From the NCBI RefSeq assembly GCF_003019035.1, contig NZ_CP027447.1: DNA of 64,000 nucleotides; one strand, written 5' to 3'. This document shows, piece after piece, positions 17,306 through 21,201 of this stretch. Position numbers and translations under genes: made by a program. The notes beneath the pieces are model-generated. The model made no database searches and was not told where the DNA came from. It worked only from the letters and a program-made list of their open reading frames with translations. Position 1 is the first letter of the stretch; each line of letters opens with the position of its first letter. The DNA comes from Escherichia coli. Its GTDB lineage: Bacteria; Pseudomonadota; Gammaproteobacteria; Enterobacterales; Enterobacteriaceae.

Positions 17306-18067
17306 CTATTCTGGGTTGAACTGCGGATTCGCCAACATAAAGCCGCCATCCACTATCAACGACTGCCCGGTGGTGTAATTTGCGCCCTCCGAACAAAGCC
17401 ATACCACCAGGCTGGCAATCTCATGCGTTGTGCCAAAACGTCGCAAGGGAATCGAAGGCTCCGCGTCAGGCTTCACGTCGCCGCCATCCATGCCGTTCAT
17501 TGGCGTGGCGATCGCCCCAGGTGCGACTGCGTTCACCAAAATTTTATGCCTGACCAGCTCCAGCGCCATTGCTTTGGTTAACCCGCCGAGCGCATGTTTA
17601 GCGGCTGTGTAGGCGCTGGCATCCGGCAGCGGCGTATGTTCATGTACCGATGTAATGTTGATGATGCGACCGCCCTGCCCTTGTTTCACCATCTGACGAG
17701 CCGCAATTTGCGAGCATAAAAATGCGCCATCGACATCAACGGTAAAAATCTTGCGCCACTCATCGAAAGCCATATCAAGAAACGGCGCTTTGGTCATTGC
17801 GCCCGCATTATTCACCAGCACATCAATACGCCCCAGCCGTTGAATAAGTTTCTCCAGCGCCAGTGCCCCTTCTGGTAGATTGCCGAGATCCAGTTGCACG
17901 ATCTCCGCACGTACGCCGTAGCTAACTACCTCACGCGCGGTATCTTTTGCCCCTTCTTCATCTGAGTGCCAGGTAATGCCAATATCAAACCCCTGCTGCG
18001 CCAGTAATAACGCGCACTCTTTGCCGATCCCCGAATCGGAGGCGGTAATTATCGCGACCTGTGCCAT
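17306..18067 (-). CDS. yohF: Short-chain dehydrogenase/reductase YohF, 253 aa
   Basis: TASDSGIG NAD(P)-binding motif, SDR catalytic region. Confidence 0.85.
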   Translation of the reverse strand: MAQVAIITASDSGIGKECALLLAQQGFDIGITWHSDEEGAKDTAREVVSYGVRAEIVQLDLGNLPEGALALEKLIQRLGRIDVLVNNAGAMTKAPFLDMAFDEWRKIFTVDVDGAFLCSQIAARQMVKQGQGGRIINITSVHEHTPLPDASAYTAAKHALGGLTKAMALELVRHKILVNAVAPGAIATPMNGMDGGDVKPDAEPSIPLRRFGTTHEIASLVVWLCSEGANYTTGQSLIVDGGFMLANPQFNPE

Positions 18068-18119: not shown

Positions 18120-19556
18120 TCAGCGTTTGTAACCCCCGCCCAGCGCACCGGTGAGTTGAATGGAAGCATCCAGCCACTGTCCCTGCAAGAGCAGACCATT
18201 GGCCCGCTCACGCAGCGCGGGGATTCTGGCTTCGCTGACGCGGGAACCAGCAATGATGCCCGCGTTAAAGCGCGCCTGCGCAAGACCTACCACACGCAAG
18301 GCATCGTGCTCAATTTGCGCCTGATGCTGGTTTTTCTCCGCCAGTGTCTGAACCTGGCTGGCCGCCCGCGCCACGTCATTTACCGCTTCAACCACCGCTT
18401 TGTTGTAGCTGGCGATAGACAAGTTGCTTTCGGCTTTTGCAATATCGAGGTTGGCGTTAAGACGACCACTATCGAAAATGGGTAGCGTCAGGCCTGCCGT
18501 AACGCCCATTTGCTGCGCGGAATGACGGAACAGATCGCTTAAGTGCAACGCATCCTGTTGCAGGAAGGCCATCAGGTTGATGTCAGGATAAAATGCCGCT
18601 TTTGCCGCATCAATAGTGCTTAACGATGACTCAACGTACCAGTGCGCCGCCTGCAAATCTGCCCGCCGGGCCAGTAAGGAGTACCCCAGTTCATCAGGAA
18701 GCTGGCTTGCCACTTTCGGCAACGCGACCGGATTAAGCTTCAATGCCTTTGTCTGGTGATTTGTAAGTGCGCTTAACCGTGCCTCAATAATTTTCATTTT
18801 CCCCGCGACATCGTTGAGCTGCTGCCGGGTTTTGCTGGCATTAATATCGGTTTCCACACCTTCAACTGCAGAAGTAATCCCGTTCTGATATAGCTGGCGA
18901 TCGGTGGCGATAATGGTGTTCTGCTCTTTTTCGATTTGCTGTAAGACCGTGTTTAACGCCGCCTGGGTTTGCCACTCCCAGTACAGGCGGGCTACGCTGC
19001 CAGCCAGCAATTGGCGGGTTTGCTCGCGTTCCGCCGCCCGTGCTTTAACCGTACCGAGGCGAGCAGTAACCTCCGCCCGATTCTTTCCCCAGATATCGAG
19101 ATGCCAGCCCGCCGTTAAGCCAAAAGTACCGTTGGTGTACCACGGACCGGTCGTACCTGCGGCAGGATCGTTCAGAGCAAACGGCCCCATTAACCCTTCT
19201 GCAGACATTTTTTGCCGCTCCATATCCGCAGAAAAGTCGATCTGCGGACCATCCTGAGTGGCAACTGCCTTCGCCTGGGCTTCAGCCAGCTGAATGCGCT
19301 GTTCAGCCACCTGCATATCCGGTGCGTTCTGTAGTGCGTTATTAATTAATGAGGTGAGTTGATTATCGTGATACTCCAGCCACCATTGGCTGTCTGGCCA
19401 ACCATTTTTCAGCGCCGTGGGTAATGCGGTGTCAACTTGTGTCGCGGGTGTTTGCTGGCTTAACGCCTGGCGGGTTTCATGCATAGGCGCACACCCGGCC
19501 AGCATCAGTAACAGCGGAAAACAGGCGATGGCTGGATAAAAAGAATCACGATTCAT
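18120..19556 (-). CDS. mdtQ: Outer membrane efflux factor (OMF/TolC-like lipoprotein) MdtQ, apparently intact, 478 aa
   Basis: Uninterrupted ORF; start at MNRDSFYPAIACFPLLLMLAGC (lipoprotein signal, lipobox LAGC); OMF family. Confidence 0.8.
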   Translation of the reverse strand: MNRDSFYPAIACFPLLLMLAGCAPMHETRQALSQQTPATQVDTALPTALKNGWPDSQWWLEYHDNQLTSLINNALQNAPDMQVAEQRIQLAEAQAKAVATQDGPQIDFSADMERQKMSAEGLMGPFALNDPAAGTTGPWYTNGTFGLTAGWHLDIWGKNRAEVTARLGTVKARAAEREQTRQLLAGSVARLYWEWQTQAALNTVLQQIEKEQNTIIATDRQLYQNGITSAVEGVETDINASKTRQQLNDVAGKMKIIEARLSALTNHQTKALKLNPVALPKVASQLPDELGYSLLARRADLQAAHWYVESSLSTIDAAKAAFYPDINLMAFLQQDALHLSDLFRHSAQQMGVTAGLTLPIFDSGRLNANLDIAKAESNLSIASYNKAVVEAVNDVARAASQVQTLAEKNQHQAQIEHDALRVVGLAQARFNAGIIAGSRVSEARIPALRERANGLLLQGQWLDASIQLTGALGGGYKR

Positions 19557-19779
19557 GGGGGAATAATCAGGTAAGAAAAGGTGCGCGGAGATTACCGTGT
19601 GTTGCGATATATTTTTTAGTTTCGCGTGGCAATACATCAGTGGCAATAAAACGACATATCCAGAAAAATATACACTAAGCGAATGATATCTTCCGATTTA
19701 TCTTAATCGTTTATGAATAGCGGCAAAGGGCTTCGTTTTTTCCTATACTTATTCAGCACTCACAAATAAAGGAACGCCA

Positions 19780-19863
19780 ATGAAAATTATACTCTGGGCT
19801 GTATTGATTATTTTCCTGATTGGGCTACTGGTGGTGACTGGCGTATTTAAGATGATATTTTAA
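19780..19863 (+). CDS. yohP: Small membrane protein YohP, 27 aa (MKIILWAVLIIFLIGLLVVTGVFKMIF)
   Basis: Read directly from sequence; below the ORF-track cutoff; Shine-Dalgarno-like AAAGGAA upstream; single TM helix. Confidence 0.65.
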   Translation: MKIILWAVLIIFLIGLLVVTGVFKMIF

Positions 19864-19967
19864 AAATCAGATATGGCATATAAGTTGTCAGGTCAGTAAC
19901 TCGATATTTTGTGTACTTGATTTACAAACAGCTCCGGTGTTGGTGGCGTCAAAATCGCTGAAGCGTT

Positions 19968-20140
19968 CCCCGAAGGCCGGGGCAGCCCACATGGATGTGG
20001 GCTGAGGGCGCGTCTTACAAGGACGTTACCTCGCGCCCGACCCGGTAGCCGAAGGGGATAAGCTGAAGGTACCGCGCAGCGGCGATTTTGTTCGCCAGAG
20101 CCCGGGGGTGCAGGGGGAGGAGGCGATTGTCCTCCCCCTG
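19968..20140. other. GC-rich, hairpin-dense intergenic element between yohP and dusC (at least four strong inverted repeats)
   Basis: Hairpins read directly: CCCCG-5nt-CGGGG (19968-19982); CAGCCCACAT-GG-ATGTGGGCTG (19983-20004); GGGCGCG-19nt-CGCGCCC (20006-20038); CAGGGGGAGGA-8nt-TCCTCCCCCTG (20111-20140). Confidence 0.4.
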
Positions 20141-20230
20141 CGCGCTCCTTGCGCCAGTGGCAATATGTGGCTTAGCTCATGAAAGGAGCGCAACAAGATG
20201 ATGAAGCTAAATAAGCGATTCATTGTCTCA

Positions 20231-20265
20231 GATAAGCTGCGATTCCACTATTATCGCAGCTTATC
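20231..20265. other. 13-bp perfect inverted repeat (GATAAGCTGCGAT-9nt-ATCGCAGCTTATC) spanning the dusC stop codon
   Basis: Seen in sequence; right arm encodes the last codons of dusC, left arm lies just 3' of the stop; no U-run on either strand so not a classical intrinsic terminator. Confidence 0.4.
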
Positions 20266-21201
20266 GATATCAATTGCCTGAATAGCCCTTGCAATATCAG
20301 GGGAATTATTCAACACCCGAACATGCTGAAATAATTCTGTTGCTTCATCGTATTCTTTACGCAAATAACTCAACCACTGTTTAATCCGCGCTACGTGATA
20401 TAACCCGGTATCGCCCTGCTTTTCCAGACGGGTATATTTTTGCAGCAAAGCAACCACCTCCGGCCACGGCATTCGCGGTTCGTTATATTTCACCACACGG
20501 CTCAGGTTGGGAATATTGAGCGCCCCGCGACCAATCATCACCGCGTCACAGCCGCTGATCGCCATACACTGTTGCGCGCTCTGCCAGTCCCAGATTTCAC
20601 CGTTGGCAATCACCGGAATATTCAGCCGTTGGCGAATCTCACCAATCGCCTGCCAATCAATATGCTCCGCGCGGTAACCCTGCTCTTTTGTCCGCCCATG
20701 CACCACCAGCTCCGTAGCGCCAGCCTGTTGAACCGCATCGGCGATTTCAAATTTCTTCTCACCGCTGTCCCAGCCCAGACGCACTTTCACACTGACGGGC
20801 AAATGCGCCGGTACAGCTTCGCGCATCGCTTTTGCACCCTGATAGATGAGTTCAGGATCTTTGAGTAACGTCGCCCCACCGCCGCTACCGTTAACCGTTT
20901 TCGACGGGCAGCCGCAATTGAGATCCACGCCCCAGGAACCTAACTCGACTGCACGGGCGGCGTTCTCTGCCAGCCATTGTGGGAACTGGCCTAACAACTG
21001 CACGCGCACCAGCGTACCGGATGGTGTCCGGCTGGCGTTTTGTAGCTCAGGGCAAATGCGATGAAAGACTTTTACCGGCAGCAGTTGATCCACCACGCGG
21101 ACAAACTCGGTGATGCACAGATCGTAGTCGTTAACTTCGGTCAGTAATTCCCGCACCAGAGAGTCAAGCACACCCTCCATCGGAGCCAGTAACACACGCA
21201 T
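20251..21201 (-). CDS. dusC: tRNA-dihydrouridine synthase C (DusC), 315 aa
   Basis: ORF trimmed to [11 protein letters not shown] start; Dus family TIM barrel. Confidence 0.9.

Follow-up and report, generated by a model that had tools for sequence, protein, structure and literature searches.

Identity of the hairpin cluster between yohP and dusC

The DNA between yohP and dusC in the Escherichia coli sequence analyzed here (a stretch of 64,000 nucleotides, hereafter the window) carries a dense cluster of hairpins, and the question is whether this is a repeat or a structured RNA. The initial annotation had proposed a BIME/Box-C-type repetitive element, a structured non-coding RNA, or an array of protein-binding sites. 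The two readings, repeat and structured RNA, are both right and describe one object.

The inverted repeats were found where that annotation had placed them in a repeat listing of the window, including the 10-bp stem with a 2-nt spacer (CAGCCCACAT/ATGTGGGCTG, 19983-19992/19995-20004). The reported 11-bp stem is also present, with a length of 12 bp rather than 11 (GCAGGGGGAGGA/TCCTCCCCCTGC, 20110-20121/20130-20141). The contrast in composition held as well, with a G+C content of 0.63-0.67 over 19950-20199 versus 0.34-0.39 in the flanks, and the flanking genes are those assumed, according to the annotation of a 100%-identical record, from which the coordinates of dusC and yohP were mapped to the window. 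The features of the locus are as follows:

19780-19863, + strand: yohP, a 27-aa small membrane protein; TRIP1c lies downstream on the same strand
19912..20213, + strand: whole homology envelope of TRIP1c (nhmmer envelope; ~300 bp)
19942-20190, + strand: conserved structured core of TRIP1c (consensus structure mapped to the window)
20231..20265, no strand assigned: locus-specific 13-bp perfect hairpin, overlapping the dusC stop, just beyond the repeat
20251-21201, - strand: dusC, tRNA dihydrouridine(16) synthase, convergent with yohP and TRIP1c

The cluster is almost certainly TRIP1c, which belongs to TRIP1, a family of Escherichia repeats present in few copies per genome. Members of this family show ∼84 to 94% nucleotide identity to TRIP1a, TRIP1b, or TRIP1c of E. 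coli K-12 over ∼146 to 273 bp, and the window copy was ∼93% identical over ∼270 bp to TRIP1a of K-12 and, in reverse complement, to its TRIP1c. Its orientation is therefore opposite to that in K-12. The gene order, mdtQ-yohP-element-dusC, fits the TRIP1c locus, which has been placed between yohI (dusC) and yohG (mdtQ) (PMC10888264). The published family (TRIP1a to TRIP1e; Rudd 1999, Res Microbiol 150:653; Li et al. 2024, Genes 15:236, PMC10888264) is described as having 0 to 5 copies of ∼270 bp, with 62-65% G+C and two orientations at the TRIP1c locus, and it agrees with the window element in length, G+C content, copy number, a predicted "double-Y" RNA fold, and the occurrence of two orientations. 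TRIP1c itself is already known and catalogued, and the novelty does not lie in the object.

The feature is larger than the segment first delimited (19968-20200). The 13-bp hairpin at its dusC side does not belong to it, given that homology among the paralogues stops near 20205-20213, and is missing from the K-12 allele. A TCGATAT direct repeat is found on both sides of the window copy, at 19900-06 and 20262-68.

Distribution of TRIP1 and comparison with other repeats

Comparison with other E. coli genomes showed that the element is multi-copy. TRIP1 occurs in 5,425 of 5,426 complete genomes, at 17,479 places (1 to 8 per genome, with a median of 3); blastn and nhmmer revealed no second copy and no related short repeats within the 64-kb window. 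Besides Escherichia, homologues were found in Citrobacter, Enterobacter, Klebsiella, Leclercia, Kluyvera, Atlantibacter, and Silvania; they derive from Klebsiella and Citrobacter matches, from 110 loci detected by genome scan, and from 137 nhmmer matches. In the Enterobacteriaceae the homologues often form head-to-head pairs, the arrangement of many copies in the other genera, and the number of copies per genome ranges from 1 to 13 across genera. Pattern matches outside the enterics (Lachnospiraceae, Desulfovibrio, and other metagenome-assembled genomes) were discarded as chance or contamination, none of them containing TwoAYGGAY at gathering score.

REP units (∼35 bp) and Box C elements (∼56 bp) occur in tens to hundreds of copies. 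REP/BIME and Box C resemble TRIP1 in several respects: they are intergenic palindromes rich in G+C, they follow genes, and they differ from strain to strain; the alx/sstT site is held by TRIP1d or, alternatively, by Box-C/REP-like repeats. TRIP1, in contrast, measures ∼300 bp, is present in 1 to 8 copies, and shows a multi-helix fold with strand-specific conserved loops. Identity with REP, BIME, or Box C was rejected: the sequences are not similar, and the Rfam search of the region gave no match of the naRNA or REP type. Thus, the element is repetitive, as had been supposed, but of the TRIP1 kind. It had also been reasoned that the presence of many copies would reduce it to an ordinary repeat; the copies are there, but TRIP1c is no featureless repeat because it has a conserved fold and invariant loops.

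A conserved fold supported by covariation

The + strand of the element folds with a free energy of -135.3 kcal/mol (z = -5.47), and none of 200 dinucleotide shuffles was as stable. Both strands fold well (z = -5.5 and -5.2). The parts of the fold, all on the + strand, are the following:

19942..20102: 5' domain, a TwoAYGGAY-like multi-helix stack with two GGA hairpins (consensus structure, per-pair covariation)
19942-48/20094-102: P0 stem of the 5' domain
19950-57/20083-90: P1 stem of the 5' domain
19950-19965 with 20075-20090: long-range 16-nt pairing, observed in the window
19958-64/20062-68: third stem of the 5' domain (consensus structure)
19967-71/20054-58: fourth stem of the 5' domain (consensus structure)
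19975-81/20041-50: fifth stem of the 5' domain (consensus structure)
19960..19961: 5' half (GA) of an invariant tandem G.A/A.G internal loop (alignment columns G26 and A27)
20065..20066: 3' half (GA) of the tandem GA internal loop (alignment columns G131 and A132)
19983..20004: hairpin 1, stem CAGCCCACA/UGUGGGCUG, apical CAUGGAUG, GGA at 19993-19995
20006..20038: hairpin 2, stem GGGCGCG/CGCGCCC (20006-12/20032-38) plus AC/GU, apical CAAGGACG, GGA at 20021-20023
20072..20082: small hairpin CCGC-GCA-GCGG, a branch off P1 (helix 10, 99.4% paired)
20110..20141: long hairpin, 12 bp here, GCAGGGGGAGGA...UCCUCCCCCUGC (helices 11 and 12)
20142-20150/20183-20191: 9-bp stem GCGCTCCTT/AAGGAGCGC (inverted-repeat listing)
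20143..20190: 3' stem-loop CGCUCCU...AGGAGCG with a variable interior (helix 13, 99.4% paired)

Covariation was analyzed in an alignment of 77 non-redundant copies. The fold comprises 13 helices and 72 pairs; 93.0% of the alignment cells were paired, versus 36 to 42% with slid partners. Compensatory changes, with substitutions on both sides, were observed in 49 of the 72 pairs, and the covariation score reached 0.371, versus 0.03 to 0.08 for slid partners, a value attained by none of 500 shuffles. Such changes affected three of the four pairs of helix 10 and 9 of the 11 pairs of helices 11 and 12, where compensatory A>C/U>G changes were present even among the E. coli paralogues. The stem of hairpin 1 covaries for its part (CG/GC/AU).

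The terminal loops behave differently from the stems: their sequences are constant between genera, whereas the stems drift and compensate. The motif CA(N)GGA(N)G occurs at least twice per copy in 76 of the 77 copies on the strand corresponding to the window + strand (0.3 per sequence in shuffles), whereas CA(N)GGANG is absent from the opposite strand in 74 of 77. Of the 77 copies, 66 have the loop CAUGGAUG in hairpin 1 and 76 have CA(N)GGA(N)G there; in hairpin 2, little or no variation affects the GGA and the CA...G around it. Both loops, CAUGGAUG and CAAGGACG, are near-invariant across the family; they lie 28 nt apart in the window, and the spacing of the GGA hairpins is 27 to 29 nt in 74 of the 76 copies with at least two sites. 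Other invariant or near-invariant elements include the tandem GA, GGCCGGG/CCCG, GAUAAG, GAGGG, and the 3' stem with GGAAC.

A strand signal was also apparent, with 138 G-U cells and 47 A-C cells, an asymmetry of only ∼3:1. Covariation alone cannot tell RNA from single-stranded DNA.

Taken together, the element very probably has a selected RNA-type fold related to TwoAYGGAY, and the option of a structured non-coding RNA was borne out by the covariation and by the match of the 5' domain to that Rfam family. The covariation-supported fold, conserved across at least ten enterobacterial genera, appears to be new. Li et al. (2024, PMC10888264) dealt with E. coli only, with single-sequence RNAfold predictions and no function given, and the published TRIP1 work contains no homologues from other genera, no covariation, no GGA loops, and no relationship with TwoAYGGAY.

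Relationship with the TwoAYGGAY motif

The covariance-model search that had been suggested for the region yielded a match to TwoAYGGAY (RF01731, clan CL00106) at 19949-20088, where the window copy aligns to the whole 168-position model. The score (28.4 bits, E = 0.12) lies under the gathering score of 43 bits. Nothing in the region reached gathering score, and the miRNA and snoRNA matches were noise from G+C-rich hairpins. Close relatives, however, pass the threshold with 44.6 to 49.2 bits: a Kluyvera locus scored 44.6 bits over model positions 1 to 168 in an E. coli-like copy, and 49.2 bits, and a Pseudocitrobacter locus scored 49.2 bits. Judged by these model scores, the family reaches TwoAYGGAY membership, though the window copy does not.

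The architecture equals that described by Weinberg and that of the Psychromonas seed sequences, which include ACAGGGACGU. Loop 1 (AUGGAU) fits AYGGAY, while loop 2 (AAGGAC) has an A at the Y position; across the family, most copies read AGGGAY or AUGGAY at this loop. A long closing P1 stem is present around the hairpins, formed by stacked, covarying helices between 19942-19981 and 20041-20102; a very large P1 is common in TwoAYGGAY (Weinberg et al. 2010, PMC2864571). The invariant GA at 19960-61 faces the invariant GA at 20065-66, and tandem GAs have been reported for TwoAYGGAY (PMC4333381). Both have a pair of adjacent hairpins, with terminal loops of the AYGGAY type or close to it, and a long outer stem with tandem GA. 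Like TRIP1, TwoAYGGAY is multi-copy within a genome (Psychromonas) and is not bound to particular genes.

Unlike the TwoAYGGAY model, the enterobacterial elements have an extra 3' module of ∼100 nt, consisting of the 12-bp hairpin and the terminal stem-loop, and the original seeds came from Psychromonas, Clostridia, and gut metagenomes, none of them from Enterobacteriaceae. These data are best explained if TRIP1 comprises the enterobacterial members of a class of structured RNAs that share TwoAYGGAY as their 5' domain, a link that appears to be new.

Transcriptional context and orientation

No intrinsic-terminator-like site was found in 19700-20400, and no U-tract follows any stem, in agreement with the initial view that the hairpins are not intrinsic terminators. 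Similarly, no sigma-70-like promoter or terminator belonging to the element was detected in the E. coli, Citrobacter, and Atlantibacter loci scanned, the promoter scan being one for the sigma-70 consensus only. A sigma-54 promoter (TGGCGTCAAAATCGC) was considered and rejected: its GG-GC spacing is, by eye, not kept in other genera, and the sequence corresponds to the P0/P1 stem. An FNR-like palindrome seen by eye in Citrobacter spacers was likewise discarded, as it is not kept between loci.

TRIP1c is preceded on its strand by yohP, and no terminator-like site separates the two, so that in this strain the element would form the yohP 3' untranslated region (UTR). At all five E. coli loci, TRIP1 is located 38 to 96 bp downstream of stop codons (PMC10888264). 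The orientation relative to neighboring genes differs between loci and, at a single locus, between lineages, so read-through will not necessarily transcribe the sense strand. In K-12, TRIP1a lies antisense to both aqpZ and lysO, and no strong bias in neighbor orientation was found in statistics based on crude ORF calls.

A possible CsrA-binding RNA

Our best overall explanation, put forward tentatively, is that the cluster is TRIP1c, a TwoAYGGAY-type RNA and a candidate CsrA site. TRIP1 would act as an RNA, transcribed as the yohP 3' UTR in the strain of the window and as the dusC 3' UTR in K-12. A rigid helical stack would present both GGA hairpins together, so that one CsrA dimer could bind the pair with high affinity; this is the weakest step of the proposal. 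Acting as a small CsrB/CsrC/McaS-like decoy, the RNA might titrate CsrA; alternatively, it might put its host transcript under CsrA control.

Binding of a CsrA dimer by TRIP1 RNA, as predicted from loop sequence and spacing, is possible but rather doubtful. The CsrA SELEX consensus is RUACARGGAUGU, with the GGA in a hairpin loop (PMC4347634). The window loops CCACAUGGAUGU and UUACAAGGACGU fit the CsrA/Rsm consensus, two sites being kept in 76 of 77 relatives, and TwoAYGGAY, which Rfam assigns to clan CL00106, has been independently predicted to bind CsrA (PMC4333381). Against it, the ACA that is invariant (100%) in SELEX reads GCA in hairpin 1 of most genera. In the published E. coli CsrA CLIP-seq tables, dusC, ybjE, and efeU are flagged as not bound, and no entry for aqpZ or yohP was found in the supplements examined (Potts 2017); this is weak negative evidence because repeat-derived reads may have been discarded. 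Nor does CsrA binding account for the greater part of the conserved structure, namely the 3' stem-loop, the long hairpin, and the GAUAAG and GAGGG stretches.

Compared with the CsrA-sequestering RNAs CsrB, CsrC, McaS, and RsmX/Y/Z, TRIP1 shares GGA motifs that match the consensus in hairpin loops, as well as neighboring stem-loop pairs suited to one bridging CsrA dimer. CsrC and CsrB contain 9 to 22 GGA loops, whereas TRIP1 has only two. Furthermore, its scaffold is far more structured, it is dispersed as repeats of variable orientation, and no BarA/UvrY-type promoter or terminator was found. With no promoter or terminator of its own detected by the sigma-70 consensus and terminator scans, TRIP1 does not appear as an independent transcription unit of the CsrB/CsrC/McaS type.

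A more specific version of the CsrA proposal is quite unlikely: TRIP1a, TRIP1b, and TRIP1c of K-12 would be the E. coli TwoAYGGAY, a ∼260-nt 13-helix RNA clamping one CsrA dimer on two GGA hairpins at optimal spacing and expressed from lineage-specific host promoters. Decoy drive would then depend on orientation, coming from yohP (stationary phase) in B2-type strains and from dusC in K-12.

Alternative explanations

A functional RNA with a partner other than CsrA (a different protein, another RNA, or the 30S subunit through mimicry of a Shine-Dalgarno sequence), or with a catalytic or ligand-binding fold, is unlikely. The large number of positions beyond the two loops that are invariant or nearly so, a 13-helix architecture that exceeds any known CsrA decoy in elaboration, the lack of CLIP signal at TRIP1-adjacent genes, and the status of TwoAYGGAY as an orphan since 2010 all point this way. 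However, both loops closely match the CsrA/Rsm consensus and lie at a distance that would suit a dimer, the Rfam search returned no ribozyme or riboswitch, and no conserved gene association points to a ligand or partner.

Also improbable is a selfish or relic repeat without host function, whose fold serves its own spread or maintenance, for instance through a single-stranded DNA or RNA intermediate and a trans-acting enzyme. Presence, absence, and both orientations vary at the same intergenic sites (see also PMC10888264), which are hot spots otherwise holding Box-C/REP-like repeats; orientation to the neighbors is not consistent, copies range from 1 to 13 per genome across genera, and TwoAYGGAY is likewise multi-copy in Psychromonas. 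However, no associated transposase or integrase was found, and the loops are invariant across genera while the stems drift and compensate. An origin as a MITE or other transposon derivative was rejected, as the entire intergenic segment is exchanged between the alleles at alx/sstT and yohP/dusC, with no clean insertion, and no terminal inverted repeats or target-site duplications were visible. Nor was an association with phages or plasmids apparent. The phage collection yielded no matches; four IMG/VR contigs contain copies, and the one examined was host rpoD/mug DNA. Matches in the plasmid collection were mostly megabase-sized, apparently mislabelled chromosomes, together with some records of 30 to 320 kb, all typed as non-mobilizable. 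Copies at the dusC locus in both E. coli and Citrobacter suggest a long residence.

As to how the two orientations arose, a simple in-situ inversion between short inverted repeats was rejected, the intergenic sequences on either side of the repeat not being reverse complements in the two alleles. Differential loss from an ancestral head-to-head pair may have occurred; it is supported by the Citrobacter youngae dusC-mdtQ locus, which holds both copies, and would fit the TCGATAT direct repeat. Against it, both E. coli orientation alleles belong to one subfamily, and the predicted two-copy junction of such an ancestor was present in none of 5,426 E. coli genomes.

The element could instead matter through structure alone at RNA 3' ends, in the manner of REP/BIME, as a barrier to 3'-5' exonucleases, an insulator of transcription or translation, or a site of factor-dependent termination between convergent genes, which we regard as very unlikely. 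Its position just after stop codons at the five E. coli loci, its location here between the convergent yohP and dusC, and its extreme stability, with both strands folding well and thus suiting either orientation, would fit such a role. A barrier, however, needs no 13-helix architecture, no invariant loops, and no motif spacing of 27 to 29 nt on one strand; no U-tract follows the stems, and many copies in other genera form head-to-head pairs rather than single 3'-end elements.

Action at the DNA level, as a cruciform, a platform for nucleoid proteins, or a recombination site with chromosomal rearrangement as the main consequence, is highly improbable. The element is palindrome-dense and G+C-rich, and Li et al. 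(2024, PMC10888264) described 156 rearrangements involving pairs of TRIP1 copies, one of them a 1.3-Mb inversion, but any dispersed repeat of 270 bp can be expected to cause rearrangements as a side effect. The ∼3:1 excess of G-U over A-C, the strand-specific motifs, and the long-range pairings and multi-way junctions, which are not cruciform-like, also speak against it.

Finally, a small-protein leader is effectively refuted, including one of the type I toxin kind: the Shine-Dalgarno-like AAGGAG at 20183-20188, 9 nt upstream of the ATG at 20198, is one strand of the covarying 3' stem and reads GUGAACG in other genera, and is therefore no conserved Shine-Dalgarno sequence; and of the two reading frames in the ORF list, the 27-aa one downstream is wholly different among paralogues (MMKLNKRF... 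here, MMNQHITTS in TRIP1a, and MRD in K-12 TRIP1c), and the 65-aa one on the minus strand is broken by stops or frameshifts in close copies.

Implications

TRIP1, viewed for 25 years as a recombination substrate, has a covariation-supported fold as elaborate as those of many named non-coding RNAs. Annotators should be aware that the E. coli copies fall under the Rfam threshold. TwoAYGGAY, for its part, has been an orphan motif since 2010, known mostly from gut metagenomes, Clostridia, and Psychromonas; provided that the link with TRIP1 holds, its function, including the prediction of CsrA binding, could be examined in E. coli K-12, with three copies and full genetic tools. Should orientation-dependent decoy expression prove true, it would mean strain-specific rewiring of the Csr network through the flipping of a repeat.

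Identification of the hairpin cluster as TRIP1c

The GC-rich run of strong hairpins described between yohP and dusC in the initial annotation was borne out by an inverted-repeat search, its true extent being somewhat larger than the 19968-20200 proposed there. G+C content was 0.63-0.67 over 19950-20199 versus 0.34-0.39 in both flanks, and a terminator scan of the region found zero terminator-like sites, in agreement with the earlier view that the hairpins are not terminators.

Features of the yohP-dusC region (window coordinates; IR, found by inverted-repeat search)
19780-19863, + strand, yohP, flanking gene
19942-20102, + strand, 5' domain, a stack of five stems
19950-19965 with 20075-20090, long-range 16-nt pairing (IR)
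19960-61 opposite 20065-66, + strand, invariant tandem GA in the 5' domain
19983-20004, + strand, hairpin 1, tip of the 5' stack
19983-19992/19995-20004, perfect 10-bp stem (IR)
20006-20038, + strand, hairpin 2, tip of the 5' stack
20072-82, + strand, small side hairpin of the 5' domain
20110-20141, + strand, 12-bp hairpin, 3' of the 5' domain
20110-20121/20130-20141, perfect 12-bp stem (IR)
20142-20150/20183-20191, perfect 9-bp stem (IR)
20143-20190, + strand, terminal stem-loop
20251-21201, - strand, dusC, flanking gene

A further perfect hairpin at 20231-20265, with a 13-bp stem (GATAAGCTGCGAT/ATCGCAGCTTATC) and a 9-nt loop, extends across the dusC stop codon; it has a U-run on neither strand and is missing from the K-12 allele of the spacer. 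On the other side of yohP, the mdtQ reading frame (18120-19646, - strand) is intact in the window strain, and an identical record annotates it as a 1437-nt gene; in K-12 derivatives it is annotated as a frameshifted pseudogene.

When the 286-bp element was used as a megablast query, 17,479 places were found in 5,425 of 5,426 complete E. coli genomes, with a median of 3 and a maximum of 8 per genome; in the record that matches the window exactly, the element occurs twice in all. The best K-12 match lies between lysO (ybjE) and aqpZ, and the K-12 yohP-dusC spacer holds the same element in reverse orientation. The suggestion of a repetitive element held, though not as a BIME/Box-C type; the repeat is a known one, TRIP1, with K-12 copies at aqpZ/ybjE (TRIP1a), putP/ycdN (TRIP1b) and yohI (dusC)/yohG (mdtQ) (TRIP1c), and with TRIP1d at alx/sstT and TRIP1e at copA/ybaP in non-K-12 strains (PMC10888264). 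TRIP1c was reported in 5,741 of 6,725 genomes, its orientations being split 2,952 versus 2,789; rearrangements between copies were documented, a "double-Y" RNA fold was predicted on single sequences, and no function was assigned (Li et al. 2024, PMC10888264). The cluster is therefore a real object already in the literature: almost certainly it is TRIP1c itself and not a new kind of element. Since the K-12 spacer holds it reversed and two orientations have been published, the window copy is in the non-K-12 orientation.

Relatives beyond E. coli

TRIP1-family matches in Klebsiella and Citrobacter came from a plasmid collection searched by blastn at higher sensitivity; many of the matching records are apparently chromosomes, and one K. 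pneumoniae chromosome has 13 places. Zero matches were found in the phage collection. Scanning a one-genome-per-species collection with a pattern built from invariant positions yielded 110 loci, distributed among Escherichia, Citrobacter, Enterobacter, Klebsiella, Raoultella, Leclercia, Kluyvera, Silvania, Atlantibacter and Pseudocitrobacter, with none in Salmonella and a few being contaminant or chance matches in unrelated MAGs. In these loci nhmmer detected 137 copies, 108 of them full length.

Four contigs from MAGs or assemblies labelled Proteobacteria, Bacillus, Sporobacter and Desulfacinum (L018, L097, L045 and L012) carry near-identical E. coli-type or Klebsiella-type copies, probably through enterobacterial contamination of the assemblies. 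Another copy, on an IMG/VR contig (L119, 4077-8163), has rpoD and a mug-like uracil-DNA glycosylase gene on its two sides, a context that is host chromosome and not phage; it adjoins a reverse-transcriptase gene that may be part of a retron.

A conserved RNA fold

To 77 copies with mutual identity below 94% (alignment A5), RNAalifold with RIBOSUM scoring assigned a consensus of 72 pairs in 13 helices. Standard pairs occupied 93.0% of cells, against 36-42% when the 3' partners were slid by 1-3 columns, and the covariation score fell likewise from 0.371 to 0.03-0.08; none of 500 shuffles reached the observed values. Both sides had changed in 49 of the 72 pairs, and a 3-pair stem (columns 49-51 with 126-128) was the only helix without compensatory change. 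The structured-RNA reading of the initial annotation thus gained a covariation-supported fold.

Both strands of the region fold stably (-135.3 kcal/mol, z = -5.47, for the + strand; -120.8 kcal/mol, z = -5.20, for the - strand). On the window + strand, A5 contains 138 G-U pairs versus 47 A-C mismatches. Of the 77 copies, 76 have two or more instances of the conserved loop motif CA(N)GGA(N)G on the corresponding strand, and 74 have none on the opposite one; its frequency in shuffles is 0.3 per sequence. With moderate confidence, these sequence patterns point to the + strand as the functional one.

Protein coding was rejected for TRIP1c: downstream open reading frames differ among paralogues, and a minus-strand frame is broken in close copies. 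AAGGAG at 20183-88 was likewise rejected as a ribosome-binding site because it forms one strand of the terminal stem and is replaced by GUGAACG in other genera. A 27-amino-acid frame just after the repeat (20198-20281, + strand), behind this Shine-Dalgarno-like sequence, is not kept in paralogues.

Relationship to the TwoAYGGAY motif

The only notable Rfam match in the window was TwoAYGGAY (RF01731), at 19949-20088; it covered the whole model, yet its 28.4 bits fell below the gathering score of 43, as do the scores of E. coli TRIP1 copies in general. Relatives exceeded this threshold: an E. coli-like Kluyvera copy scored 44.6 bits (model positions 1-168), and partner copies in Kluyvera and Pseudocitrobacter 49.2 bits. 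TwoAYGGAY, from gut metagenomes, Clostridia and gamma-proteobacteria, consists of two hairpins with AYGGAY terminal loops and a closing P1 that is often very long (Weinberg et al. 2010, PMC2864571). Its gamma-proteobacterial seeds are multi-copy Psychromonas elements whose loops, among them ACAUGGAUGU and ACAGGGACGU, are the same as those of TRIP1, and tandem GAs reported within a stem of the motif (PMC4333381) have their counterpart in the invariant tandem GA of TRIP1. TRIP1 also carries a 3' module, about 100 nt long, for which the Rfam model has no counterpart. Given the relatives above threshold and the shared loops and tandem GA, we conclude that TRIP1 is very probably the enterobacterial branch of the TwoAYGGAY class, extended by this module. 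Among the papers found under either name, those on TRIP1 make no mention of TwoAYGGAY, and vice versa.

Paired copies and orientation alleles

Head-to-head pairs, whose members come from two diverged subfamilies and are separated by 43-124 bp of A+T-rich DNA, are common in Citrobacter, Atlantibacter, Pseudocitrobacter, Kluyvera, Leclercia and some Enterobacter (loci L005, L016, L057, L060, L080, L081, L101 and others); Klebsiella has tandem pairs too. The pair of Citrobacter youngae (L029, 606-1222) lies between dusC and mdtQ, at the orthologue of the window locus, with one copy toward dusC, as in the window, and the other toward mdtQ, as in K-12.

Escherichia lineages show both orientations at TRIP1c, TRIP1a and TRIP1d. 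Relative to the flanking genes, TRIP1a is reversed in E. coli E69 (L046, 3880-4172) compared with K-12, and TRIP1d in E. whittamii (L070, 5184-5479) compared with another retrieved locus, L006; hence, the polymorphism is wider than that published for TRIP1c and TRIP1a of E. coli. Each orientation allele has its own unrelated 50-90-bp flanks, and comparison of the alleles revealed no visible terminal inverted repeats or target duplications. Similarly, at alx/sstT the entire intergenic segment is replaced, not interrupted.

In the window, a TCGATAT direct repeat (19900-19906 and 20262-20268) brackets TRIP1c and the 13-bp hairpin, and deletion between its members would recreate the K-12 junction ...GAGTTTCTCGATATCAATTGCC. 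An ancestral head-to-head pair from which one copy was lost would be an attractive origin for the orientation alleles, but the two-copy intermediate that it predicts was found in 0 of 5426 E. coli genomes, and the fact that both E. coli alleles belong to one subfamily counts against it.

The alx/sstT spacers lacking TRIP1d (L117, ~500-700, K-12; L118, ~500-650, an O170 strain) contain Box-C/REP-like repeats, CCCTCTCCC...GGGAGAGGG...GGGGTGAGGG. Many copies in Enterobacter, Leclercia and Silvania (for example L023, L052, L063 and L114) are followed directly 3' by the same C-rich sequence, CCCCTCACCC(T/C)A(A/G)CCCTCTCCC, which resembles a single arm of a REP/Box-C-type palindrome.

A possible role through CsrA

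Loop 1 of TRIP1 reads CA(U/G/A)GGA(U/C/A)G and loop 2 CA(N)GGA(Y)G, at a spacing of 27-29 nt. The SELEX consensus for CsrA is RUACARGGAUGU, with GGA within a hairpin loop (PMC4347634), and TwoAYGGAY was predicted, on motif matches, to bind CsrA (Gardner and Eldai, PMC4333381). The corresponding TRIP1 sequences are CCACAUGGAUGU and UUACAAGGACGU in the window and UUACAGGGAUGU in the K-12 copies. One CsrA dimer bridges two RNA sites, as in CsrA and Rsm structures. By analogy, the helical stack would offer two adjacent GGA hairpins to both RNA-binding faces of a single dimer, which is the most economical model, although we regard it as tentative and rather doubtful.

In the window strain TRIP1c lies downstream of yohP on the same strand, with no terminator between, so it would be transcribed as the yohP 3' untranslated region; in K-12 it follows dusC likewise and hence would form the dusC 3' untranslated region. 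Starvation and stationary phase both induce yohP (PMC12719787).

Our caution about CsrA has four grounds. Scans of E. coli, Citrobacter and Atlantibacter loci found no sigma-70-type promoter or terminator belonging to the element, its orientation relative to neighbouring genes varies, the genes next to TRIP1 copies are not flagged in the CLIP tables published for CsrA (reads from repeats having possibly been discarded), and most of the architecture that is conserved has no explanation in the model. Against CsrA binding stands, first, an RNA element with another partner; TRIP1 could also be a selfish element, act by structure alone at 3' ends or, finally, have a role at the DNA level.

To the catalogued element the present analysis adds a 13-helix fold backed by covariation, a distribution that spans Enterobacteriaceae, the organization in pairs and the link to TwoAYGGAY. 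The CsrA hypothesis for this orphan motif is now open to test in E. coli K-12.
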